From assembly GCF_016026235.1 (NCBI RefSeq), contig NZ_CP065613.1: a stretch of DNA of 64,000 nt. One strand, written 5' to 3'. Source of the stretch: Escherichia coli. Its GTDB lineage: Bacteria; Pseudomonadota; Gammaproteobacteria; Enterobacterales; Enterobacteriaceae. The notes under the pieces are model-generated. The model was not told the origin of the DNA and did no database searches. It saw nothing but the letters and a program-made list of their open reading frames with translations. The translations under genes were made by a program, and so were the position numbers. Shown here in pieces: positions 7,723-49,200 of this stretch (within the stretch, counting starts at the first letter, position 1; each line of letters starts with the position of its first letter).

Positions 7723-7869
7723 GATTCGCCTGAACATGCCCTTTTTTCGTAAGTAAGCAACATAAGCTGTCACGTTTTGTGATGGCTATTAGAAATTCCT
7801 ATGCAACAACTGAAAAAAAATTACAAAAAGTGCTTTCTGAACTGAACAAAAAAGAGTAAAGTTAGTCGC

Positions 7870-7978
7870 GTAGGGTACAGAGGTAAGATGTTCTATCTTT
7901 CAGACCTTTTACTTCACGTAATCGGATTTGGCTGAATATTTTAGCCGCCCCAGTCAGTAATGACTGGGGCGTTTTTTA
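7870..7978 (+). ncRNA. spf: Spot 42 small RNA
   Basis: sequence GTAGGGTACAGAGGTAAGATGTTCTATCTTTCAGACC...CCCCAGTCAGTAATGACTGGGGCGTTTTTTATT matches remembered Spot 42 including intrinsic terminator; conserved position between polA and engB. Confidence 0.9.
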
Positions 7979-9006: not shown

Positions 9007-9248
9007 ATAGAGCGAGGACGCTAACAGGAACAATGACTCAGGATGAGGGTCAGGAGCGCCAGGAGGCGAAGACAGAGGATTGTCAGGAAGACAAACGTCC
9101 GGAGACGTAATTAAACGGAAATGGAATCAACACGGATTGTTCCGGCTAAAGGAAAAACAGGGTGTGTTGGCGGCCTGCAAGGATTGTAAGACCCGTTAAG
9201 GGTTATGAGTCAGGAAAAAAGGCGACAGAGTAATCTGTCGCCTTTTTT
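9007..9248 (+). ncRNA. csrC: CsrC small RNA (CsrA-sequestering)
   Basis: about 240 nt between engB and yihI with about 13 GGA motifs (CAGGA/AGGA in predicted loops) and terminal hairpin ggcgacagagtaatctgtcgcc plus T-run; matches known csrC location. Confidence 0.85.
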
Positions 9249-9317
9249 CTTTGCTTGCTTTCTGTTAGATTCCGCCGCAAATCTATACTGAATAAAACGG
9301 CTAAAAGACGAACCATT

Positions 9318-16006: not shown

Positions 16007-16076
16007 CTGCACCATGATGTGAATGTTGCACCAATATAGTGCTTCAATGGAAACATTAAGCACCATATTGGTGCAA
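16007..16076. promoter_or_regulatory. NtrC enhancer binding sites upstream of glnA
   Basis: dyad motifs TGCACCA-N-TGGTGCA family: gctgcaccatgatgtg, tgcaccaatatagtgc, gcaccatattggtgca. Confidence 0.7.
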
Positions 16077-16226
16077 TGACCTTTGGATAACCCTTTTTAT
16101 GCTCCGTGAAAGCGATCACAAAGGGACTCTGCAATACTTGTTTGCGGAGGATGTTTGTGATCCTGTTTTGTAGTGCGATTAATCCGTGTACAATAACGCG
16201 CTATTTCTAATGCCTGAGGCAAAGTT

Positions 16227-18088: not shown

Positions 18089-19514
18089 TAATGCCGATCA
18101 GTTAAGGATCAGTTGACCGATCCAGTGGCTGTGTAAGAATCCGGAAACGCTCACTTGTTTCCGGATTTTTTTATGCACATTGGACAGGCTCTTGATCTGG
18201 TATCCCGTTACGATTCTCTGCGTAACCCACTGACTTCTCTGGGGGATTACCTCGACCCCGAACTCATCTCTCGTTGCCTTGCCGAATCAGGTACTGTAAC
18301 GCTACGCAAGCGCCGTCTTCCCCTCGAAATGATGGTCTGGTGTATTGTTGGCATGGCGCTTGAGCGTAAAGAACCTCTTCACCAGATTGTGAATCGCCTG
18401 GACATCATGCTGCCGGGCAATCGCCCCTTCGTTGCCCCCAGTGCCGTTATTCAGGCCCGCCAGCGCCTGGGAAGTGAGGCTGTCCGCCGCGTGTTCACGA
18501 AAACAGTGCAGCTCTGGCATAACGCCACGCCGCATCCGCACTGGTGCGGCCTGACCCTGCTGGCCATCGATGGTGTGTTCTGGCGCACACCGGATACACC
18601 AGAGAACGATGCAGCCTTCCCCCGCCAGACACATGCCGGGAACCCGGCGCTCTACCCGCAGGTCAAAATGGTCTGCCAGATGGAACTGACCAGCCATCTG
18701 CTGACGGCTGCAGCCTTCGGCACGATGAAGAACAGCGAAAATGAGCTTGCTGAGCAACTTATAGAACAAACCGGCGATAACACTCTGACGTTAATGGATA
18801 AAGGTTATTACTCACTGGGACTGTTAAATGCCTGGAGCCTGGCGGGAGAACACCGCCACTGGATGATACCTCTCAGAAAGGGAGCGCAATATGAAGAGCT
18901 CAGAAAACTGGGTAAAGGCGATCATCTGGTGAAGCTGAAAACCAGCCCGCAGGCACGAAAAAAGTGGCCGGGACTGGGAAATGAAGTGACAGCCCGCCTG
19001 CTGACCGTGACGCGCAAAGGAAAAGTCTGCCATCTGCTGACGTCGATGACGGACGCCATGCGCTTCCCCGGAGGAGAAATGGCGGATCTGTACAGTCATC
19101 GCTGGGAAATCGAACTGGGATACAGGGAGATAAAACAGACGATGCAACTGAGCAGGCTGACGCTGAGAAGTAAAAAGCCGGAGCTTGTGGAGCAAGAGCT
19201 GTGGGGTGTCTTACTGGCTTATAATCTGGTGAGATATCAGATGATTAAAATGGCGGAACATCTGAAAGGTTACTGGCCGAATCAACTGAGTTTCTCAGAA
19301 TCATGCGGAATGGTGATGAGAATGCTGATGACATTGCAGGGCGCTTCACCGGGACGTATACCGGAGCTGATGCGCGATTTTGCAAGTATGGGACAACTTG
19401 TGAAATTACCGACGAGAAGGGGAAGGGCCTTCCCGAGAGTGGTAAAGGAGAGGCCCTGGAAATACCCCACAGCCCCGAAAAAGAGCCAGTCAGTTGCTTA
19501 ACTGACTGGCATTA
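18089..19514 (+). mobile_element. insertion sequence IS4 (1426 bp) with 18-bp imperfect terminal inverted repeats
   Basis: terminal IRs TAATGCCGATCAGTTAAG (18089..18106) and CTTAACTGACTGGCATTA (19497..19514); single DDE transposase ORF; 12-bp direct repeats; length equals canonical IS4. Confidence 0.9.
18173..19501 (+). CDS. insG: IS4 transposase InsG
   Basis: ORF 18155..19501; start taken at [12 protein letters not shown]4-family DDE transposase. Confidence 0.85.
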
Positions 19515-22775: not shown

Positions 22776-22852
<77 letters not shown>

Positions 22853-22860
22853 GTTTCACA

Positions 22861-23553
22861 TCAGAAGAAATACTTCGTCCCGATACGAATCTGGTTTTGC
22901 TCGCGGTGGTACGGTTCCACGTTGCGATCTAACCAGCGCAATTCAATATAGGGCAGCCAGTGCTCGTTAATGCGGTAACGGAAGGTGTTAGTGATTTCCC
23001 AGTGATGCTTCGTGCCATTGCCGCTATTGAAATCATTAATGTTATAAAAATAATGCGGCTCAAAGGTATATGAGAACTTATCGGTAATAATAAAGTTCCA
23101 GTAGTTGCCAATCTCGTAGCTGTCATTATTATCCAGATCACCGTTTAAATCGGTTGAGCTGTAGTTATTATGGTTAAAACGGTTGCGTACTGTCAGGTTA
23201 AACCACGGAGTAAATTTGTAGTTAACATCCAGATAAACAGCACCACCCGAACCGATACTCTTATCATTAATTAAGCCACCGGGCTGGATGGTTAATTTAT
23301 CGGTTGGTTTAAATAACGGATACCAGCCTTCAATTTCGTTATATCCATGTTTAAGTTCATCTTCTCGCTGAAAGGTGTAGGTATTGGTTAACATAATACC
23401 CGCGCCCATATCGAAGTTATAACCCACACGTAGCATAACCTCGCCCTGATCGGAGGCGAGATTATATGCCTCCCTGTTTTCGACGTATGCGCCAGCGAAT
23501 ACTGAGGCAGAGGTCAGAGAAGATAATAAAATTATTGCATTAATATTTTTCAT
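22861..23553 (-). CDS. ompL: outer membrane porin OmpL
   Basis: ORF 22861..23619; start taken at MKNINAIILLSS signal peptide; beta-barrel with C-terminal KYFF. Confidence 0.85.
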   Translation of the reverse strand: MKNINAIILLSSLTSASVFAGAYVENREAYNLASDQGEVMLRVGYNFDMGAGIMLTNTYTFQREDELKHGYNEIEGWYPLFKPTDKLTIQPGGLINDKSIGSGGAVYLDVNYKFTPWFNLTVRNRFNHNNYSSTDLNGDLDNNDSYEIGNYWNFIITDKFSYTFEPHYFYNINDFNSGNGTKHHWEITNTFRYRINEHWLPYIELRWLDRNVEPYHREQNQIRIGTKYFF

Positions 23554-23619
23554 AATAAGTCCATTTTTAAACGTAGGGAGGCCGCCACCCACCAGGATGG
23601 AAATAGCGGCTATTGACAT

Positions 23620-25023
23620 TTATAACGTTACGGAAGCCGTTTTTTCTTCTGTCGCCATCTCTTTATTTTTGCGTTGGTTGATTTCCTCAATAATCAACGC
23701 AAACCGTTTTTCATTGAGTGTGTAAAAGAATCCCATCGTCAATGCAGCAATAATTGCCAGTGCACAAGGCCAGATAAAAATGAGCTGACGCAAACCCTGT
23801 AATGTCGCATCACTTTGCGCGATGTTGGGAACATAACCGATTTGCGTCAGCATAATGCCTGGCAAGAAGCCAGCAAGTGCGGCAGAAATTTTACGAAAGA
23901 AGGTATAACCGGTATAAACAGAACCTTCGGCACGAATACCGGTTTTCCATTCACCGTAATCTACGGTATCTGGCACCAGTGCCCAGTTCAGGCTGTTTAC
24001 AAAGGCCGTGCCAAAAAAGGCGATACAAGAGAACATGACGAAAGTGAAAGAGTTACTTCCCCAGAAATAATTCAGGATATCACCCACTGCCCATAGCACC
24101 ATGCCAGCTAAATAAACCTGTTTTTTACCAAAACATTTTACAGTTAATGGCACCAGTAATACGCCGATGAGGATGCATCCCATACTGAAGAATCCCATCC
24201 ACGACAATAAATTAATATCATTCAGCACATACTGGGTGTAATAGACCTGAATCGCCAGTTTGATATTAAATGCCGCCAGGGTACACAAGTTAGCAATGCA
24301 TAAAACCAGCAATGGCGGATTCCGAAATATCGCGCAAAATGATTTGAGAATACTGGCTTTATGTCCGGTTGGTGCTGTGTCCACATAATGCTCTTTGACG
24401 CCTCTGTAGCACAGCATCATAAAAATAAAGCCACCAATGGAGAACATCAGTGCCGCACAGGCATAACCGACGGTTGAGTCAGAAAAAAGCGACTGCAACG
24501 GAATAAACGCCACGGTACAAATCAATAGCCCTATGGTTGCACCACCCTGGCGGTAAGCCGCGAGCTGCGCGCGCTCATTCGGGTTTTTAGTAATGGCTGG
24601 GATCATCGCACCATACGAGCAGTTCATCAGACTGTATGAAAGTCCAAACATCATAAACAGCGCGGTGGCAATCGTCGTTTTAACCGGCAAACTAAAAGTG
24701 GTGGCGATAAACTGGAGCGTTGCAATTAACGCCGCCGGAACCGCTGCGTATAAAATAAAGGGACGAAATTTGCCTTTAGGCCCAATATTTTTCCGCGAAT
24801 CGAGTAAAAATCCGGTGAGCATATCGGTAAACGCGGTAAAAAACTTCGCCACCAGAAAGATAATCCCGCCATAGTAAGCTGGCATCCCTAATTCATCGGT
24901 ATAAAATTTGAGGAGATACAGAGTACCGATGCTAAGCATTAAATTCGAACCAACGTCGCCCATACCATAGGCGATTTTTTCCCGCAGATTCAGTTTTAAT
25001 GTCAGTGGATTATGGTCAGACAT
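23620..25023 (-). CDS. yihO: GPH-family sugar (sulfoquinovose) transporter YihO
   Basis: ORF 23620..25029; 12-TM Na+/melibiose-type permease; paralogous to adjacent yihP. Confidence 0.88.
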   Translation of the reverse strand: MSDHNPLTLKLNLREKIAYGMGDVGSNLMLSIGTLYLLKFYTDELGMPAYYGGIIFLVAKFFTAFTDMLTGFLLDSRKNIGPKGKFRPFILYAAVPAALIATLQFIATTFSLPVKTTIATALFMMFGLSYSLMNCSYGAMIPAITKNPNERAQLAAYRQGGATIGLLICTVAFIPLQSLFSDSTVGYACAALMFSIGGFIFMMLCYRGVKEHYVDTAPTGHKASILKSFCAIFRNPPLLVLCIANLCTLAAFNIKLAIQVYYTQYVLNDINLLSWMGFFSMGCILIGVLLVPLTVKCFGKKQVYLAGMVLWAVGDILNYFWGSNSFTFVMFSCIAFFGTAFVNSLNWALVPDTVDYGEWKTGIRAEGSVYTGYTFFRKISAALAGFLPGIMLTQIGYVPNIAQSDATLQGLRQLIFIWPCALAIIAALTMGFFYTLNEKRFALIIEEINQRKNKEMATEEKTASVTL

Positions 25024-25065
25024 AATCACTCCTTATAACGCCCCGCAGGGCATTGTTTATTATTA

Positions 25066-26451
25066 TTACGCCGTGCGTTTACGGGCTTCTATTTCTTCAA
25101 CAATGCGGACATACATCTTCTCGTTCAGGCTGTAGAAGCAGCCCATCGCCACAATGGTGACTACCGCCAGTGCGCTTGGGTAGATGAAGATCAGCTGGCG
25201 CAACCCTTCAATGGTGTGGTCAGCCTGCGCCACGTTCGGCACATAACCGATTTGCGTCAGCATCCAGCCGGGGAAGAAACCAGCCAGCGCCTGAGACACT
25301 TTGCGAAAGAAGGTGAAGCCGGTGTAGACCGTTCCTTCCGAACGAACGCCGGTACGCCACTCGCCGTACTCGACGGTGTCGGAAACCAGCGCCCAGTTCA
25401 GGCTGTTAACAAACGCTGAGCCGAAGAATGCCAGGCAGGAGAACGCCACGAAGCTGACCGAACCGCCGCCGAAGAAATAGTTGAGCAGATCGCCCAGCAC
25501 CCAAATCAGTAGGCCGCCGATATAGACCTTCTTCTTACCAAAACGCCTGACTGCGCCAGGCATCAGGAACACACCGATGAAAATACAGCCCATGCTGAAA
25601 AATCCCATATATGACAACAGGATGGGATCGTTAAGCACGTACTGGGTGTAATAGACCTGAATGGCGAGCTTGACGTTAAACGCCCCTAAAGTGCAGAGGT
25701 TGGCAATGCACAAAATGAACAGTGGGCGGTTACCGGCAATTGCGCGGAAAGATTGCAACAGGCCTGGCTTTTGCGCCGGATTGGTAGGTTGGGTTTCGAC
25801 ATAACGCTCTTTCACGCCCGAATAGCAGATCCACATAAACAGCAGGCCAAACAGTGAAAACAGCGTGGCGGCGAAGATATAGCCAAGTTGTTGATTACCC
25901 TCGATAAGATTCATAACCGGCACGAATCCCACCGTGCACAGCAGCAGGCCCAGCGTAGCGCCGCCCTGACGCCATGCTGCCAGCGAGGCGCGTTCGTTGG
26001 GGTTTTTGGTAATGGCGGGAACCATTGCGCCGTAGGAGCAGTTCATCATGCTGAAAAACAGCCCGTAGAGCATAAACAGAATAGTGGCCATCACCGTTTT
26101 ACCAGTGACATCGAACGGTGTGCCGATAAAGTTAGCGATTGCCAATAAGGTGACCGGGAATGACGCGTACAAAATGAAAGGGCGGAACTTACCTTTCGGG
26201 CCAATCTTACGCCGGGAATCCAGCATGATGCCGGTTCCCATATCGGTAAAGGCGGTAAAGAATTTCGAGATCAAAAAGATAATGCCGCCATAGGTGCCAG
26301 GTAGCCCCAGAACGTCGGTATAAAACTTCAAAAGATAAAGCGTACCAATATCCAGCAGGATGTTAGAGGCCAGATCGCCGATACCGTAAGAGAGTTTCTC
26401 TTTAAAGGGCAGGCGCAAAGTTGCCGGATCTTCCGTTGTGATGTGACTCAT
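25066..26451 (-). CDS. yihP: GPH-family transporter YihP
   Basis: ORF 25066..26484; strongly similar to YihO (e.g. IGTLYLLKFYTD, IGPKGKFRPFILYA); exact start uncertain. Confidence 0.85.
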   Translation of the reverse strand: MSHITTEDPATLRLPFKEKLSYGIGDLASNILLDIGTLYLLKFYTDVLGLPGTYGGIIFLISKFFTAFTDMGTGIMLDSRRKIGPKGKFRPFILYASFPVTLLAIANFIGTPFDVTGKTVMATILFMLYGLFFSMMNCSYGAMVPAITKNPNERASLAAWRQGGATLGLLLCTVGFVPVMNLIEGNQQLGYIFAATLFSLFGLLFMWICYSGVKERYVETQPTNPAQKPGLLQSFRAIAGNRPLFILCIANLCTLGAFNVKLAIQVYYTQYVLNDPILLSYMGFFSMGCIFIGVFLMPGAVRRFGKKKVYIGGLLIWVLGDLLNYFFGGGSVSFVAFSCLAFFGSAFVNSLNWALVSDTVEYGEWRTGVRSEGTVYTGFTFFRKVSQALAGFFPGWMLTQIGYVPNVAQADHTIEGLRQLIFIYPSALAVVTIVAMGCFYSLNEKMYVRIVEEIEARKRTA

Positions 26452-26496
26452 CGTTATTCTCCATTTGCCCGTGAGTTTCCCCACGGGCGGGCATGA

Positions 26497-28533
26497 TTAG
26501 ATGTTTTTTAACGAGGCGAACAGTGCAGCCCATTCGCTGTCGGCGCGATAAAAGACCGGCGGCTTGCCGATGGGCGCTTCAACAGTTATTTCTCCACCGT
26601 GGAAGGTTTCTCCGGTCCAGGCGTGGACCCAGTTATCCTCTGGCAGATAGAGCGTCCAGTCGCTACGACCTTCTTCGTGTACCGGAGCAACCAGAATGTC
26701 GCGACCTAACAGGTACTGATATTTCAGGGAATAGGTCTGCGCGTCGTCTTCGTAATGCAGGAACAGCGGGCGCATAACCGGCAGGCCGGACTTCGCATTC
26801 AGCGCGACGGCCTCTTTCAGGTAAGGTTTCAGGGTGGTGAAGACGGTGGTCATACGGGCGAAATGGGCGATGGTTTCCGCGTCGCCGTCAAACTGCCAGT
26901 TGTCGCTAGGACGGTTACCTTCGTGGGTGCGCATCATCGGCGTGAAGGCGCTGAAATCGCACCAGCGCAGCAGCAGCTCTTTGCTGCGCTTCATCTCAAA
27001 CAGGGTGGTATAACCGCCAATGTCGCTGTGATGCAGGCCATGTCCGGTCATTGCCAGAGATAGCGCCGCCGGGACAACCGACGCCAGGCCATCGTCCAGA
27101 CTCCAGTCCACGTTCTGGTCACCCGCCCACATCATGGTGGAGTATTTCTGGCTACCGGTAGAACCGGCGCGCATAAAGAAGAGGATCTCGCCGAGCTTGC
27201 CCGTTTCTTCAAGGGCTTCGTAGTTACATTTCGCCCACAGCGCGGGCCAGGCGTTATGCATAATTTCCGCGCTGATGCCGTTATGCAGGTACGTGTCGGT
27301 GGGCAGATACTCGCCGAAGTCAGCCATCCAGCCGCCGCAGCCGAGTTCAATCATGTTCTTTTTGATAACTTCCTTGAACTAGGCGTAGGCTTCCGGATTG
27401 GTGAGATCGACAACGCCGCCGTAGAACTCGCCAAACTCCACCAGATAGTCGCCACCGGCGACATCTTTTGCCAGATAACCGCGCTTTGCCGCCTCTTCGC
27501 AGAGATCTTTATCACTGGCAACATACGGGTTGATATAGGCAAGGAACTGCACGCCCTCTTTGTTCCACTGCTTGATACGCGAATCCAGTTGCGGGTAGTT
27601 TTCGCTGTTCCACTTCCAGTTCCACATCACGCGTTTGCCAAAAGAGGTCATACGAATACCGGACCAGTCCTGCGCCCAGATGCCGTTGACCTTCACGCCC
27701 GCGTTACGCATGGTGTCCAGTTTCTTCTGGCACACTTCCGTCCCGCCCTGAATGCCGAGCGTTACTCCGTCATAAATCCAGTCGGGCAGTTCTGGCTGGC
27801 GTCCCAGCAGGGCGGTTAATTTTTCCAGCAGGGAGATGTATGTGTCAGCACATTCAAAACGCAGCGTTGCTTTGTCTTCCCACAGCGCCAGTTCATGGTA
27901 TTCTGGGGCACTAAAGTCGAAGTTCATATAGCAACTGTTATCAACATGGCAGTAATACTTCTGCGTGCTGACAAACGTAGGCTGTGGGAAGAAAGTCCAG
28001 TAATAGTCGCCGCCCGCATTTTCTTTGCAGTCGGCCTGCCAGGTGACATAGGTTTGTTTGTTGCGACCAACGCCTTGTTCACTGGTCCATAGCGGGAACG
28101 GTTTGCCACGCAGATCGAAGTAGGAAAACTGTTCGCCGCAGCCGTAGATATGGTCCTCTGGTTGAGCGGCAAGGCGCAGCCAGATACGGTTGTGGTTAAG
28201 GTTGTCGTTTTGTAGTTCCAGCAATAAACGGCCCTGATCGTCGGCAGAGATATTCAGCGTGGCGCTAATGTCAGAACCACGGCTGAAATGGATTAACCAA
28301 CCATCCGGCGACTGGCTGACGATGGCGTCGGTAAGCGCAATTTTCTCCTGTAGTTTATCTTTAATGCTGAAATTGCCGCGGAACATATCGATATCCGCAA
28401 TACCTGAACCAATCCATAAACAAGGATTATCTTTGCTATGGGTTAAAATAAGACGCTGTTGAAAATGTAGGGTAAAACTGTCGTTATTCTGATGAAACTG
28501 AAAATCTGGTAATTGTGGGCGTGGCGTATCCAT
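26497..28533 (-). pseudogene. yihQ: sulfoquinovosidase yihQ (GH31 alpha-glucosidase family) interrupted by in-frame amber codon at 27379..27381
   Basis: two ORFs (27379..28533 and 26497..27354) lie in the same frame separated only by TAG; flanking translation ...LTNPEAYA*FKEVIKKNMIELG...; total length 678 codons equals intact YihQ. Confidence 0.8.
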
Positions 28534-28641
28534 AAATAATCTCCATAGAGTATAAAGCTAATATTTCATGCCATCCTGTTGTTACAGGTTTCATTAATTA
28601 AAGAATGTGGTGCTGGTATAAATTAAAACCCGCATAAGTGA

Positions 28642-29517
28642 TTATTTACTTTCTTCAGCCCGGCGGATTGCCGCCACTTTTTTACCAAATGCCAGTTGCA
28701 GTATAACTAACAAGGTAAAAGGAGGCAGAAGCGCGGCAGCAGCGGGAATTCCCAGCGCGCCTTTTATCAACATAGAACCGGAGGCAATCAGCAACAAAAA
28801 GACCATCACACGGAACACTTTGACTGAAATGCGTTTATGCACATATTGTCCAACCAGTGAACCGAGGATCATGGTGGGAATACAAAACAGCACCAGTTTA
28901 AAGATAGAAACAGTCAAAATTCCGCTGGTCGCCAGCCCGCCGATCACCGCGATGTTGTTTGCGGTGAAGAAAGCGTTCAGAGTGCCACGAAATGCCGCCG
29001 GGCCTAAGTTACGCAGCATACCGTAGATAACCATCGGCGGTCCGTTGGTTGAAAACGCTGCCCCTAACGCTCCTGCCACAGCGCCGATAGGTGCGGCGAT
29101 CCAGTTGCGGTCATAAATCGGCAGGCGTGGAATAAACATACTGTAAAAGGAGTACAGGATAAGGAATCCGCCTAAGCCCACTTTCATAAAATGGTCGGGT
29201 AAATATGACAGCGCATATAAACCGACGGGTATTCCCAGAAACGAGAAAATAATCAGTACCATTGCCGATCGCCAATCCGTTTCTTTACGTGACAGCCAGG
29301 TGGCGTACAAGGCGGTCGCGGTGCCGACAATCACCGAGAGCGGAGTTGCCATTTTTACGGGGAGCATTAACGTGACGAGCGGCATGGTGGTTAAACCACC
29401 GCCAAATCCCGCGCATATCCCCACAAAGGTATAAAGAAACATTAACGCGATAACGATACATACCACGTTTGTTTCCAGCATGACCCCATCCGGTGAAAAT
29501 AACGTAAAAAAGTCCAT
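28642..29517 (-). CDS. TauE/SafE-family (DUF81) membrane permease, putative sulfonate/sulfite-type anion exporter
   Basis: 291-aa polytopic ORF with glycine-rich motifs typical of TauE family (GFGGGLTT, GAVAGALGAAF); lies between yihQ and yihR. Confidence 0.7.
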   Translation of the reverse strand: MDFFTLFSPDGVMLETNVVCIVIALMFLYTFVGICAGFGGGLTTMPLVTLMLPVKMATPLSVIVGTATALYATWLSRKETDWRSAMVLIIFSFLGIPVGLYALSYLPDHFMKVGLGGFLILYSFYSMFIPRLPIYDRNWIAAPIGAVAGALGAAFSTNGPPMVIYGMLRNLGPAAFRGTLNAFFTANNIAVIGGLATSGILTVSIFKLVLFCIPTMILGSLVGQYVHKRISVKVFRVMVFLLLIASGSMLIKGALGIPAAAALLPPFTLLVILQLAFGKKVAAIRRAEESK

Positions 29518-29577
29518 GATATTCCCTGTTGTGTAAATACAACCCTAAACAATGATCTCGTTCTTTTCTTAATAAAA

Positions 29578-30480
29578 TTAATTGTGCTGCCCGTAAATAT
29601 TAAAAAACAGGCGGTGCGTTTTCCCTGGTTCCAGTAATAATAAGTCGAGACCTGAATTAAAGGCGTTAGGTGGGCAACTCATAGGTTCAACTGCCAGTCC
29701 CTGACGCTGTAATTTTTCGCCGCTATAAATCTGCACCCAGGGTTGATCGGAACAAAGGCTTACCGAAAGCGCCTGTTGTGGATGGGTAATGGTTATTTCC
29801 CACAGATCATTAGCGGTTTTAAAGGTGTGGTCGATTTTTGTCGCGGCTATTTTTTTCGCCTGCGTGAAATTTAAATCCAGCTCATCAACGTGGTGAAGCG
29901 TTGTCGGATTAGCGTGCTCATCGACGGCATAAACCTGGTTTGCCGGAAGCTGGAACAGATATTCATCAACAGATGTTAAGTTGCAGGTTAAATAAGGATG
30001 AATACCCACACCATAGGGTGCGGTCACAGTACCAATATTCTGACTTGCGATCTCAACGGAAAGACCCGTGCGTGCATTGAGCGAATAAACAACCTGCGAA
30101 GCCAGCATAAACGGATAGCCGTAACTGGGCGGCAGAAAAGCTGTCAGGGTAACGCTGGTGGCGGTTAATTCGCTGATTTGCCAGTCACGCCAGGCGAGCA
30201 GCCCATGAATAGCGGCTTTTGAACCATGTTCATTAATGGGTAACTGATATTCCTGCCCCTGATAGCGATAACAGCCGTTGGCGATCCGGTTCGGCCACGG
30301 AATAAGGACTTTGCCCAGATGTGCCAGCGGCATCTCTTCGGGTTTATGCGGAATAACTAAATGACAGCCCTGAAAGGTTAATTCAGCCAGACCTGCACCG
30401 ACGGTCACAATGGTCGCGTGATAATCCCCCGCGGCAAGTGAAACGGTCTGTCCACTGCAATGCATGTTGGTGATTTGCAT
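29578..30480 (-). CDS. yihR: aldose-1-epimerase family protein YihR (sulfoquinovose mutarotase)
   Basis: 300-aa ORF, galactose-mutarotase-like; synteny. Confidence 0.85.
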   Translation of the reverse strand: MQITNMHCSGQTVSLAAGDYHATIVTVGAGLAELTFQGCHLVIPHKPEEMPLAHLGKVLIPWPNRIANGCYRYQGQEYQLPINEHGSKAAIHGLLAWRDWQISELTATSVTLTAFLPPSYGYPFMLASQVVYSLNARTGLSVEIASQNIGTVTAPYGVGIHPYLTCNLTSVDEYLFQLPANQVYAVDEHANPTTLHHVDELDLNFTQAKKIAATKIDHTFKTANDLWEITITHPQQALSVSLCSDQPWVQIYSGEKLQRQGLAVEPMSCPPNAFNSGLDLLLLEPGKTHRLFFNIYGQHN

Positions 30481-30548
30481 ACGAGGTACCTTTATTGAAT
30501 AACGACATACCCGGCGTGCAGCCTGATATGTCGTTTTTTGTTAGTCAG

Positions 30549-46270: not shown

Positions 46271-49200
46271 TTACACCTTTTCCACATTCACAAGGAAGGA
46301 CTTAAACTCCGGCGTCTGCGTGTTCGCATCACCAACGAATGGCGTTAACGTATTGGCAATAAAGCCTTTTTTAGCTACGCCTTCATAACCCCAGTGAATC
46401 GGAATACCGATGGTATCGATATCTTTGCCGTTCGCTTTCAGCGTGCGAATACGTTTGGTCACCACCGCTTTGGCCTTGATATAGCCACGGTTGGAGGAGA
46501 CTTTCACGGTATCGCCCTGGGCAATGCCAAGTTTATTCGCCAGCGACTCCCCGATTTCCACAAACTGCTCTGGCTGCAAAATCGCGTTCAACAGCGCGTG
46601 TTTGGTCCAGTAGTGGAAGTGCTCGGTCAGACGATAGGTGGTTCCGACATACGGGAACTTATCGGCTTTACCCAATGCTTCGGCGTCGTCTTTAAAGATA
46701 CGTGCAGCCGGGTTCGAGATAACGTTTGGATGCAGCGGGTTAGTTCCCAGCGGCGTTTCAAACGGCTCGTAGTGTTCCGGGAACGGACCTTCCGCCATCT
46801 TATCGAGGGCAAACAGACGCCCCATGCCTTCCTGCTGCATGATAAACGGCCCGACGCCGCTGCCCGGAGGCGCTGCGCTGTAGTCCGGAATATCCCAGCC
46901 GGTCCACTTAGTGCCGTCCCATTTCAGCAACTGACGCTTCGGATCCCACGGGTTACCCTGCGGATCTGCGGAGGCGCGGTTATACAGAATGCGGCGGTTA
47001 AGCGGCCATGCCCATGCCCAGCCCAGCGTGTTACCGAGGCCAGACGGATCGGCGTTATCACGACGCGCCATCTGGTTGCCTTCCGGCGTCCAGCTACCGG
47101 CGAAAATCCAGCAACCACAGGAAGTTGTACCGTCATCGCGCAGTTGGGCGAACGAGCTAAGTTGTTGGCCTTTCTTGACGATAACCGCACCGGTTGCCGG
47201 ATCGGTAATATCGGCCAGCGCCTTACCGTTACTCTCCATCGCCACTTCTTCTGAAGATGGCTCATGCGGAATGGCGTAGTTCCAGGTCATGTTCAGCACC
47301 TGGTCCGGGTTCGCGCCACCCTGTTCGGCATACATCTTGCGCAAGCGCAGGAAGATACCGGAGAGGATCTCGCCGTCAGTCAGCGCAATCCCCGGGGCGT
47401 CCGCACCTTTCCAGTGCCACTGTAACCAGCGACCTGAGTTAACGATAGAACCGTTCTCTTCCGCGAAGCAGGTCGATGGCAGACGGAACACTTCGGTCTG
47501 GATCTTCGACGAGTCAACTTCGTTCAGCTCACCGTGGTTCTGCCAGAAGTTAGAGGTTTCAGTGTTCAGCGGGTCGATGGTGACGAGGAACTTCAGTTTC
47601 GACAGACAACCGATCACTTTGTTTTTGTTCGGGAATGAGGCAACAGGGTTAAAGCCCTGGCAGATATAGCCATTGACCTTGCCCTCTTTCATCATCTCGA
47701 AGTATTGCAGGACGTCGTAGCCTTTATCCCACTTCGGCAACCAGTCAAAGCCCCAGCTATTTTCCGCCGTCGCTTTATCACCAAAGAAGGCCTTCATCAT
47801 AGAGACGAAGAATTTCGGGTAGTTGCCCCAGTAGTTTACCTGGCCTTCCAGCAGCGGTTTTGGCGTGTTGGCGGTAAGGTAGGTTTGCAGATCGGTCTGC
47901 TTCTCGCTTGGCAGCGTCATGTAACCTGGCAGGCTCTGCGACAGCAGCCCCAGGTCCGTCAGCCCCTGAATATTGGAGTGACCGCGCAGGGCGTTAACGC
48001 CGCCGCCAGCCATCCCCATGTTACCGAGCAGCAGCTGGATCATCGCCATCGTACGAATGTTTTGCGCACCAACGGAGTGTTGCGTCCAGCCGAGGGCATA
48101 CAGGAACGAGGCAGTTTTATCGTGAGCACTGGTTTCTGCGATGTATTCGCAGACTTTCAGGAACGCGTCTTTTGGCGTACCACAGATGTTTTCAACCACA
48201 TCTGGCGTGTAGCGGGAAACGTGCTGTTTCAGCAAGTTCCACACGCAGCGCGGATGTTGCAGCGTGGTATCGCGTTTGGCGAAGCCGTTTTCGTCCAGTT
48301 CATAAGTCCAGGAGGATTTATCGTACTTGCGTTTTTCCGCGTCGTAGCCGGTGAACAGGCCATCTTCAAAGCCGTAATCCTCACGCACGATCAGGCTGGC
48401 GTTGGTATAGGCTTCGGTGTATTCGCGGTTGAATTTTTCATTGTTCAGCAGGTACAGCAATACGCCTGACAGGAAAGCAATGTCAGTACCGGAACGAATA
48501 GGGGCATAGTAGTCAGCCACCGCCGCCGTACGCGTAAAGCGAGGATCGATCACAATCAGCTTCGCGCCATTGTGAATTTTGGCTTCCATCGCCCAGCGGA
48601 ACCCGACCGGGTGAGCTTCAGCGGCGTTACCGCCCATCACCACGACGAGGTTGGCGTTCTTGATGTCGACCCAGTGGTTGGTCATCGCACCGCGACCAAA
48701 TGTTGGAGCAAGACTTGCTACCGTTGGTCCGTGTCAGACACGCGCCTGGTTGTCGACCGCGAGCATACCCAGCGCGCGGGAGAATTTTTGCGTTAAATAG
48801 CCGGTTTCGTTACTCGACGCGGAAGCACACAGCATCCCGGTGGAGAGCCAGCGGTTAACAGTCACGCCTTCGGCGTTTTGCGCAATGTAGTTAGCATCGC
48901 GGTCTTCTTTCATCAGTTTGGCGATGCGATCAAACGCCTCTTCCCAACTGATTTGCTGCCATTTATCAGAACCTGGCGCACGGTATTCCGGAAACTTCAG
49001 ACGGCTTTCGGAGTGGATGAAATCCACCAGGCCAGCGCCTTTCGGACAAAGTGCACCGCGGTTGACCGGGTGATCCGGATCGCCTTCGATATGGAAGATA
49101 GATGCTTTGGCGTTTTTTGCTCCGTCACCGAGGCTGTACATCAACAGCCCACAGCCTACGGAACAATAGGTGCAGGTATTACGGGTTTCGCGGGTGCGCA

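Follow-up and report, generated by a model that had tools for sequence, protein, structure and literature searches.

The yihP–yihO pair of the Escherichia coli sulfoquinovose cassette: two GPH-family permeases from an old tandem duplication

The window, a stretch of 64,000 nucleotides from Escherichia coli, carries a sulfoquinovose (SQ) cassette on its minus strand; the features discussed here are listed in Table 1. With RefSeq-type starts, positions 23620-26451 run exactly from the stop codon of yihO to the ATG of yihP. The products of both genes match the GPH profile TIGR00792 over their full length, with scores of 529.8 bits for YihO and 536.5 bits for YihP against a curated cut-off of 231.35, and score 267 and 263 bits, respectively, with the MFS_2 profile PF13347: the preliminary description, where two adjacent GPH permeases were named yihO and yihP, was correct. 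YihO belongs to the O clade of the tree described below, adjoins ompL and has 99% identity with P0001, the YihO cluster of E. coli; YihP belongs to the P clade, adjoins yihQ and has 97% identity with P0121, the YihP cluster of E. coli; for both, the position is syntenic with K-12. Both genes have been annotated and published as paralogues within this cassette, and the main finding is in this sense already known.

Table 1. Position and assignment of the features at the yihP–yihO locus; the last column indicates the basis of each assignment.
Feature	Position	Strand	Description	Basis
ompL	22861-23553	-	KdgM-family outer-membrane porin, last gene of the transport module	NF007434 (471 bits), PF06178
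yihO	23620-25023	-	467 aa GPH-family (TC 2.A.2) MFS permease, O clade	ORF, TIGR00792, PF13347
yihP–yihO spacer	25024-25065	-	42 nt; small GC hairpin (GCCCTGCGGGGC) and AAGGAG ribosome-binding site	sequence
yihP	25066-26451	-	461 aa GPH-family MFS permease, P clade	ORF, TIGR00792
yihQ	26497-28533	-	sulfoquinovosidase (GH31); in-frame TAG at 27379-27381 (codon 385, TGG->TAG)	sequence
TauE/SafE (TSUP) permease	28642-29517	-	291 aa, between yihQ and yihR; candidate C3-sulfonate (DHPS) exporter	PF01925
yihR	29578-30480	-	sulfoquinovose mutarotase (aldose-1-epimerase)	NF011719 (618 bits)

The spacer between the two genes was scanned on the minus strand for promoters and terminators, and nothing convincing was found; since neither was called there, yihP and yihO are probably co-transcribed. 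A scan of the whole span from yihO to yihP for RNA families, promoters and terminators similarly returned nothing of note. When compared to K-12, dN/dS is about 0.06 for yihO and about 0.02 for yihP: both genes are under strong purifying selection. Inside yihO and yihP, where the host coding sequence is strongly constrained, there are antisense ORFs of 86-93 aa.

Upon BLASTP alignment, YihO and YihP share 297 of 456 residues (65% identities, 81% positives, 3 gaps). This is far above the background of the GPH family: when relatives of YihO were sought among 1.84 billion cluster representatives (50% identity), the next full-length ones had identities of 51%, 40% and 39%; most GPH proteins fell between 28 and 37%, and most relatives beyond the nearest between 28 and 40%. 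The three long peptides previously indicated as shared, IGTLYLLKFYTD, GGIIFL(V/I)(A/S)KFFTAFTDM and IGPKGKFRPFILYA, are indeed found in both translations. The nucleotide sequences of yihO and yihP are likewise 65% identical; a repeat search reports a direct repeat of 300 nt, with 71% identity and a spacing of 1410 nt. Synonymous sites are saturated (pS 0.76, with dN 0.26), third-position identity is 40%, and GC3 is 0.49 in yihO vs 0.67 in yihP. Recent gene conversion within the window was considered and rejected: third-position identity, in a sliding window along the pair, stays at or below 0.57, and two identical runs of 23 nt, the longest present, deviate only slightly from a codon-shuffled expectation (P about 0.04), leaving no convincing tract.

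Upstream of yihP, the amber codon reported for yihQ is real and rare. The two halves of the gene, on either side of the TAG, both match NF007746, and the stop lies inside the match to the GH31 TIM barrel, interrupting the frame expected of a functional YihQ. The catalytic Asp residues of YihQ, reported as D405 and D472 by Speciale et al. (2016), are located downstream of it. Of 620 matching genomes, only 1 carries the exact 61-mer of the stop site; the same stop is present in E. coli ERL04-3476, where yihQ is annotated as a pseudogene. Such an interruption should prevent the use of SQ glycosides.

The TauE-like permease was initially regarded as an extra gene of this strain. The gene is real, its product matching PF01925 over residues 23-248 with 121.8 bits (gathering score 32.6), but it is no strain oddity: 1287 of 5426 complete E. 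coli genomes carry it, and orthologues are found in the cassettes of Cronobacter (76% identical), C. rodentium (88%) and a further locus, L006 (98%). TauE is thus a common variant, K-12 being the form without it, and appears to be an ancestral cassette gene. In other sulfoglycolytic clusters, permeases of this type are predicted SL/DHPS exporters; a 2025 survey of yih cassette variants does not mention "TauE".

The relationships of the two permeases were reconstructed in a tree, where gene copies group by type, O or P, and not by species. The two clades are sisters (bootstrap 100), separated by a long stem from other GPH proteins; bootstrap support is 100 for the O clade, 100 for the core P clade and 91 for the wide P clade, and each of the two includes both Enterobacteriaceae and Yersiniaceae. 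Orthologues from other genera are 72-93% identical to their own copy, vs 65% between YihO and YihP. Gene order tells the same story: the P-then-O tandem downstream (3') of yihQ is conserved across seven genera, being found also in Salmonella, C. rodentium, Cronobacter, Enterobacter, Serratia and Yersinia. Wherever the downstream gene is readable, the O slot is followed by a KdgM-family porin; such a gene follows the GPH pair, or a hybrid of the two, in Cronobacter, Enterobacter, Yersinia and S. bongori. As in E. coli, the cassette adjoins typA-glnA in Cronobacter, C. rodentium, S. bongori and Enterobacter, which argues for vertical inheritance.

The yihP–yihO pair is therefore one old tandem duplication, inherited as a module: the two genes represent closest paralogue lineages, lie on the same strand and are 42 nt apart. 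It is shared with many related bacteria and is an ordinary feature of the cassette. A single ancient duplication event, preceding the diversification of the Enterobacterales cassette, would have produced both genes. As an overall explanation, a co-transcribed GPH pair of the sulfo-EMP cassette, derived from an ancient tandem duplication and with both copies under purifying selection, appears highly probable. If Yersiniaceae acquired the whole cassette horizontally, a dating of the duplication as older than the family split could be blurred.

The preliminary description spoke of a local duplication followed by divergence. Descent of both genes from one ancestral gene is confirmed by the joint O and P clade, but the event is not local to the lineage. 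A recent origin in E. coli, or in this very strain, with subsequent fast divergence, might be suggested by the tight, co-oriented arrangement and by the two 23-nt runs, slightly above expectation; it is refuted by the tree and by synteny, and is also at odds with the saturated synonymous sites, the GC3 gap, the closer orthologues of each copy elsewhere and the tandem shared by seven genera, so that its probability is minimal. The same GC3 gap could be read as the sign of a horizontal arrival, beside a distant homologue, of yihO and ompL, which would then not derive from a local duplication. Both are low in GC (0.42-0.45, with GC3 about 0.49, vs 0.53 and 0.64-0.67 in yihP and yihQ), and a GC contrast is likewise seen in Salmonella. 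Yet the O and P clades are mutual closest relatives among all the representatives searched, the O gene occupies the same slot across genera, with the porin next to it where readable, and the slot is unchanged also in genera where the GC contrast is missing, such as Cronobacter (0.74 vs 0.77). Such an arrival is thus very unlikely. Allelic replacement of yihO and ompL within Escherichia and Salmonella may have occurred; the origin of the pair is unaffected either way.

Possible substrates were approached by comparison with MelB, the Salmonella melibiose permease (PDB 4M64, 7L16/7L17), structural prototype of the GPH family. Homology to 4M64 (E 1e-40) extends from residue 11 to 439 of the query and from 3 to 438 of MelB, covering the whole 12-helix core; a hydropathy count, crude and imprecise, gives 10-11 peaks. 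Pocket residues were mapped by alignment at about 30% identity; R149 of MelB aligns to a Gln, with an Arg one residue earlier, and the register is uncertain at that point. The equivalents of D59, G117, R141, D351, R363, T373 and K377 are kept in YihO and YihP; the first, a helix-II Asp that in MelB is the protonation site and is used for cation coupling, is D67 in YihO and D70 in YihP, and is invariant in both clades. In contrast, the Na+ ligands D55 and N58 are replaced by Thr, the sugar ligands K18/D19 by Ser/Asn and D124 by Asn, while W128 is replaced by Gly, W342 by Asn and V376 by Arg. In both permeases, accordingly, the acidic sugar ligands D19 and D124 are both Asn, and an extra Arg adjoins the conserved helix-XI Lys (FFRK). 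Judging from these residues, the pocket would fit an anionic sulfonate or sulfosugar rather than a neutral galactoside, and coupling is probably to H+ rather than to Na+.

Consistent differences between the O and P clades are limited to 14 positions. Two of them are in the pocket, at the equivalents of MelB Y120 and Q372, where O has Tyr and P has Phe; beside the pocket, a third position has Ser in O and Phe in P. In YihO the three residues are Y130, Y373 and S376. These few positions are direct mutagenesis targets for the assignment of substrates.

In the literature, a ΔyihO mutant does not grow on SQ and YihP is "most likely" responsible for DHPS export (PMC6278857); yihO, yihP and ompL are induced on SQ, with a log2FC of at least 5 (PMC12608037). 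With this genetic support, YihO would mediate the uptake of free sulfoquinovose, and YihP would handle a second sulfonate, either DHPS outward, as guessed in the literature, or an SQ glycoside inward. As to substrates and direction, an SQ importer (YihO) and a carrier of another sulfonate (YihP) are the most likely assignments, and the ancient, conserved pair implies that the two carriers have probably long been in distinct jobs. In this strain the TauE permease would be an additional, more conventional candidate for DHPS export. It is possible, though not the favored option, that both permeases are importers, one for instance taking up SQ and the other SQ-glycerol or further SQ glycosides, with DHPS leaving through TauE, where the gene is present, or through an unrelated exporter; the exporter label for YihP would then be wrong. 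The nearly identical pocket and cation-site residues of O and P suggest a shared mechanism and similar substrates, the cytoplasmic location of YihQ requires that glycosides be imported (PMC8006165), and TauE, ancestral-looking in the cassette, is of the type usually predicted to export C3-sulfonates. On the other hand, K-12 still excretes DHPS without TauE (PMC6278857), and the change from Tyr to Phe in P is equally compatible with DHPS, a smaller substrate.

A different view of the division of labor is offered by other lineages, where the pair has more than once been reduced to a single yihP::yihO hybrid gene, namely S. bongori, a genome labelled E. albertii, Symbiopectobacterium and rare E. 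coli. The hybrid junctions fall at one spot, around aa 140-155; a junction probe found no hybrid in complete E. coli genomes, the best match being 88%, and the S. bongori hybrid cassette has no TauE gene in the stretch examined. Judging from these natural hybrids, a second carrier may not be strictly necessary. It may be speculated, although this appears doubtful, that the two-copy array is unstable and prone to recombine into one functional hybrid, that DHPS export is not the dedicated role of YihP and that a single GPH carrier suffices; as to YihP, the suggestion stems from the repeated collapse and from the ancestral look of TauE. LacS exchanges lactose for galactose; by analogy, a lone GPH carrier might perhaps work as an SQ/DHPS exchanger. 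Were the single-carrier reading true, the textbook transport scheme of E. coli sulfoglycolysis would need revision; single-hybrid cassettes are a ready-made natural test of the need for two carriers.

Two other unusual arrangements were discarded. A three-gene array (P, O/P hybrid, O) at locus L010 was taken as a metagenome assembly chimera: its left part is Enterobacter-like, with GC3 0.80 and gene lengths as in L016, while the right part, with GC3 0.50, matches E. coli at 99-100% identity. A Salmonella with two O-type copies, as indicated by clusters P0022 and P0033, was likewise dismissed: in the Salmonella locus (L007) a P-type gene, sharing about 90% identity with E. coli YihP, comes first and an O-type gene second, P0022 being a recombinant or partial allele.

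In the account of Denger et al. 2014, as cited in PMC6278857 and PMC12608037, the sulfo-EMP cassette of K-12 is ompL-yihOPQRSTUVW. The cassette of the window features the same genes in the same order, at the same chromosomal site adjoining typA/yihLMN, with YihO and YihP each differing by 4 residues from the K-12 counterpart. It differs from K-12 in the amber codon of yihQ, in a yihP allele unusually divergent at silent sites (dS 0.24, vs 0.07 for yihO) and in the TauE/SafE gene between yihQ and yihR, where K-12 has an unrelated, AT-rich stretch of 189 bp. The K-12-based pathway scheme overlooks a cassette TauE that is present in about a quarter of complete E. coli genomes. Proteins of the same family (PF01925) are likewise located inside SQ-degradation clusters in other bacteria, as is the case for SftE in Bacillus/Enterococcus and TauE in Cupriavidus necator.

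The segment at 23620-26451 is occupied by two neighbouring minus-strand ORFs, yihO and yihP, separated by a 42-nt spacer which features a small GC hairpin and an AAGGAG ribosome-binding site. The locus is the E. coli sulfoquinovose (SQ; sulfo-EMP) cassette, reported in the table along with the related loci discussed below; its best match among complete E. coli genomes shares 98.9% identity over 22800-30500. Neither K-12 nor the best-matching genome has the IS4-family ORF between typA and yihL; the identical typA–IS4 junction is present in 54 complete E. coli genomes. Elsewhere in the window, Rfam matches at gathering score (7860-7978, 9007-9260, 16038-16145, 48681-48739 and 59429-59591) correspond to Spot 42, CsrC, ES222, a SECIS element in the fdoG region and naRNA4 (two copies), all usual for this part of an E. 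coli genome.

Location of the cassette genes in the window, and of yihP::yihO hybrid genes in other genomes or contigs (L handles)
Feature	Location	Strand	Length	Remarks
ompL	22861-23553	minus		
yihO	23620-25023	minus	467 aa	ORF, RefSeq-type start codon
yihP	25066-26451	minus	461 aa	ORF, RefSeq-type start codon
yihQ	26497-28533	minus		
TauE/SafE gene	28642-29517	minus	291 aa	
yihR, yihS, yihT, yihU		minus		same cluster as yihO and yihP
yihV, csqR		plus		
yihLMN, typA				other side of the cassette
IS4-family transposase ORF	18155-19501			between typA and yihL
hybrid	L003:8001-9413			E. coli contig, K-12-like flanks
hybrid	L004:3282-4694			E. coli contig, K-12-like flanks
hybrid	L005:2347-3759			E. 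coli contig, K-12-like flanks
hybrid	L006:8001-9413			E. albertii-labelled complete genome
hybrid	L013:7001-8428			Salmonella bongori, complete genome
hybrid	L014:7001-8431			Symbiopectobacterium PLON1

Both products belong to the GPH family: they score 530 (YihO) and 537 bits (YihP) against TIGR00792, where the cut-off is 231, and both also match PF13347. The three peptide strings quoted in the preliminary description as shared are found in both translations, and BLASTP aligns the two proteins with 297 identities out of 456 (65%; 81% positives). To measure the family background, 1.84 billion representatives at 50% identity were scanned in full with HMMER: beyond the YihO/YihP group, the nearest full-length proteins reach 51%, 40% and 39% identity, most GPH proteins 28–37%, so that the pair stands clearly above background. 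The observation of adjacent paralogous permeases is correct, and is already known biology.

The same description had proposed a local duplication followed by divergence. Duplication and divergence are both borne out, but the event is ancient rather than local in scale. The two genes are 65% identical as DNA and only 40% at third codon positions; pS is saturated (0.76) and dN is 0.26 (Nei-Gojobori), while GC3 is 0.49 in yihO and 0.67 in yihP. In searches with each protein, Enterobacterales orthologues share 72–93% identity with one copy but only about 65–69% with the other. In a neighbour-joining tree (55 sequences, 453 columns, 100 bootstraps; obvious chimeras left out, 28–51%-identical proteins as outgroups), the YihO-like (O) clade is supported at 100, the YihP-like (P) clade at 91, with a P core at 100, and their union at 100 on a long stem; Enterobacteriaceae and Yersiniaceae are present in both clades. 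The order yihQ, P-type, O-type is found in Salmonella enterica, Citrobacter rodentium, Cronobacter, Enterobacter ludwigii, Serratia microhaemolytica and Yersinia. In Cronobacter, Enterobacter and Yersinia the pair is followed by a gene for a KdgM-family porin; no such gene is called at this position in the C. rodentium and Serratia loci, and in Salmonella enterica a contig end cuts the downstream gene. As in E. coli, the cassette adjoins typA-glnA in Cronobacter, C. rodentium, S. bongori and Enterobacter. Tree and conserved tandem order together place the duplication before the diversification of the enterobacterial cassette: yihO and yihP derive from one tandem duplication, which tells nothing particular about the source strain. 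In composition, ompL and yihO (22861-25023) lie clearly below yihP and yihQ (GC3 about 0.49 versus 0.64–0.67); Salmonella shows the same contrast between yihO and yihP, whereas Cronobacter does not.

The yihP–yihO pair is carried by 3872 of the 5426 complete E. coli genomes, which match the "long cassette" of PMC12608037. Both genes are under strong purifying selection, with dN/dS relative to K-12 of about 0.06 (yihO) and 0.02 (yihP) and four amino-acid differences in each protein. Divergence from K-12 is unequal, dS being 0.24 for yihP and only 0.07 for yihO, with identities of about 92% in the 5' part of yihP and about 98.5% in yihO: along the cassette, alleles of different lineages are thus combined as a mosaic.

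Several database proteins are P-type over their first ~140–150 residues and O-type afterwards, being encoded by in-frame hybrids of a yihP 5' part (~430–460 nt) and a yihO 3' part. At these loci a single GPH gene is found downstream of yihQ, at the usual position of the pair, followed by ompL; the exception is the degraded cassette of Symbiopectobacterium PLON1, where neither yihQ nor a porin gene is called beside the hybrid. This polarity is the one expected if unequal recombination between direct repeats had deleted the intervening DNA. The junctions all fall at one place, away from the longest identical runs. The three E. coli hybrids have distinct crossover points, which span about 45 nt and lie inside the segment encoding MNCSYGAM-PAITKNPNERA, and hence arose independently; none of the 5426 complete E. 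coli genomes carries a hybrid. A three-gene array (P, O/P hybrid, O) on a metagenome contig (L010:7575-11610) is most readily accounted for by chimeric assembly, apparently of Enterobacter and E. coli sequence, with the join in a stretch conserved between the paralogues.

The amber codon previously noticed in yihQ is indeed present: the minus strand reads GCC TAC GCC TAG TTC AAG, with the in-frame TAG (27379-27381) falling within the GH31 catalytic domain; the corresponding codon of other E. coli is TGG (Trp385). A 61-mer spanning the site matches 620 genomes, of which ERL04-3476 alone, a complete genome from a pork isolate, has the same TAG; its yihQ is a RefSeq pseudogene with an internal stop. 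Apart from the stop, this region of ERL04-3476 matches the window at only 98.8% identity, so the same change may have arisen twice. Should the amber be genuine, SQ glycosides would not be hydrolysed by the source strain, while free SQ could remain usable.

YihO and YihP align across the entire core (E 1e-40) with MelB, the melibiose permease and solved structural prototype of the family, where D59 serves as protonation site, Na+ is bound by D55 and N58, and D19 and D124 are acidic sugar ligands. When MelB is added to an alignment of 41 O-clade and 13 P-clade sequences, the following residue states are invariant in both clades: D59 is kept; D55 and N58 are both Thr, with loss of the Na+ ligands; K18/D19 become Ser/Asn and D124 becomes Asn, neutralising both acidic sugar ligands; W128 becomes Gly and W342 Asn; K377 is kept and V376 is Arg (motif FFRK). 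These residues suggest adaptation of the pocket to a substrate that is an anionic sulfonate; transport is probably proton-coupled. Only 14 positions are clade-diagnostic (conserved to 90% or more inside each clade, different between clades). In the pocket, MelB Y120 corresponds to Tyr130 in O and Phe133 in P, and Q372 to Tyr373 and Phe379; beside the Arg-Lys pair, Ser376 in O is Phe382 in P. The P pocket thus has fewer hydrogen-bonding groups, a contrast compatible with different but related substrates.

YihO is considered the SQ importer, growth on SQ being lost in a ΔyihO mutant, and YihP "most likely" exports the C3 sulfonate DHPS (PMC6278857); growth on SQ strongly induces all three transport genes (PMC12608037). 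The substrates and the direction of transport are putative assignments. The O/P residue contrast, the natural hybrids and the TauE variant offer small but usable leads on what each carrier transports.

The TauE-like permease had been regarded as an extra gene of this strain. The gene is present (PF01925, 121.8 bits), but as a common allele: it occurs in 1287 of the 5426 complete E. coli genomes, about one third of long-cassette carriers. Homology with K-12 stops at 28551 and restarts at 29587, 189 bp of unrelated AT-rich DNA replacing the segment 28552-29586 in K-12; the segment is an indel polymorphism of the long cassette. Orthologues lie inside the cassettes of the E. albertii-labelled genome (98% aa identity), C. 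rodentium (88%) and Cronobacter (76%), in the last between yihQ and the P gene, and TauE therefore looks like an old cassette member missing from K-12. It is nowhere mentioned in the 2025 survey of yih cassette variants (PMC12608037). In other sulfoglycolytic clusters, TauE-type permeases are the usual predicted C3-sulfonate exporters: by analogy, TauE is a reasonable candidate for DHPS export in this cassette, which makes the assignment of that role to YihP less secure.
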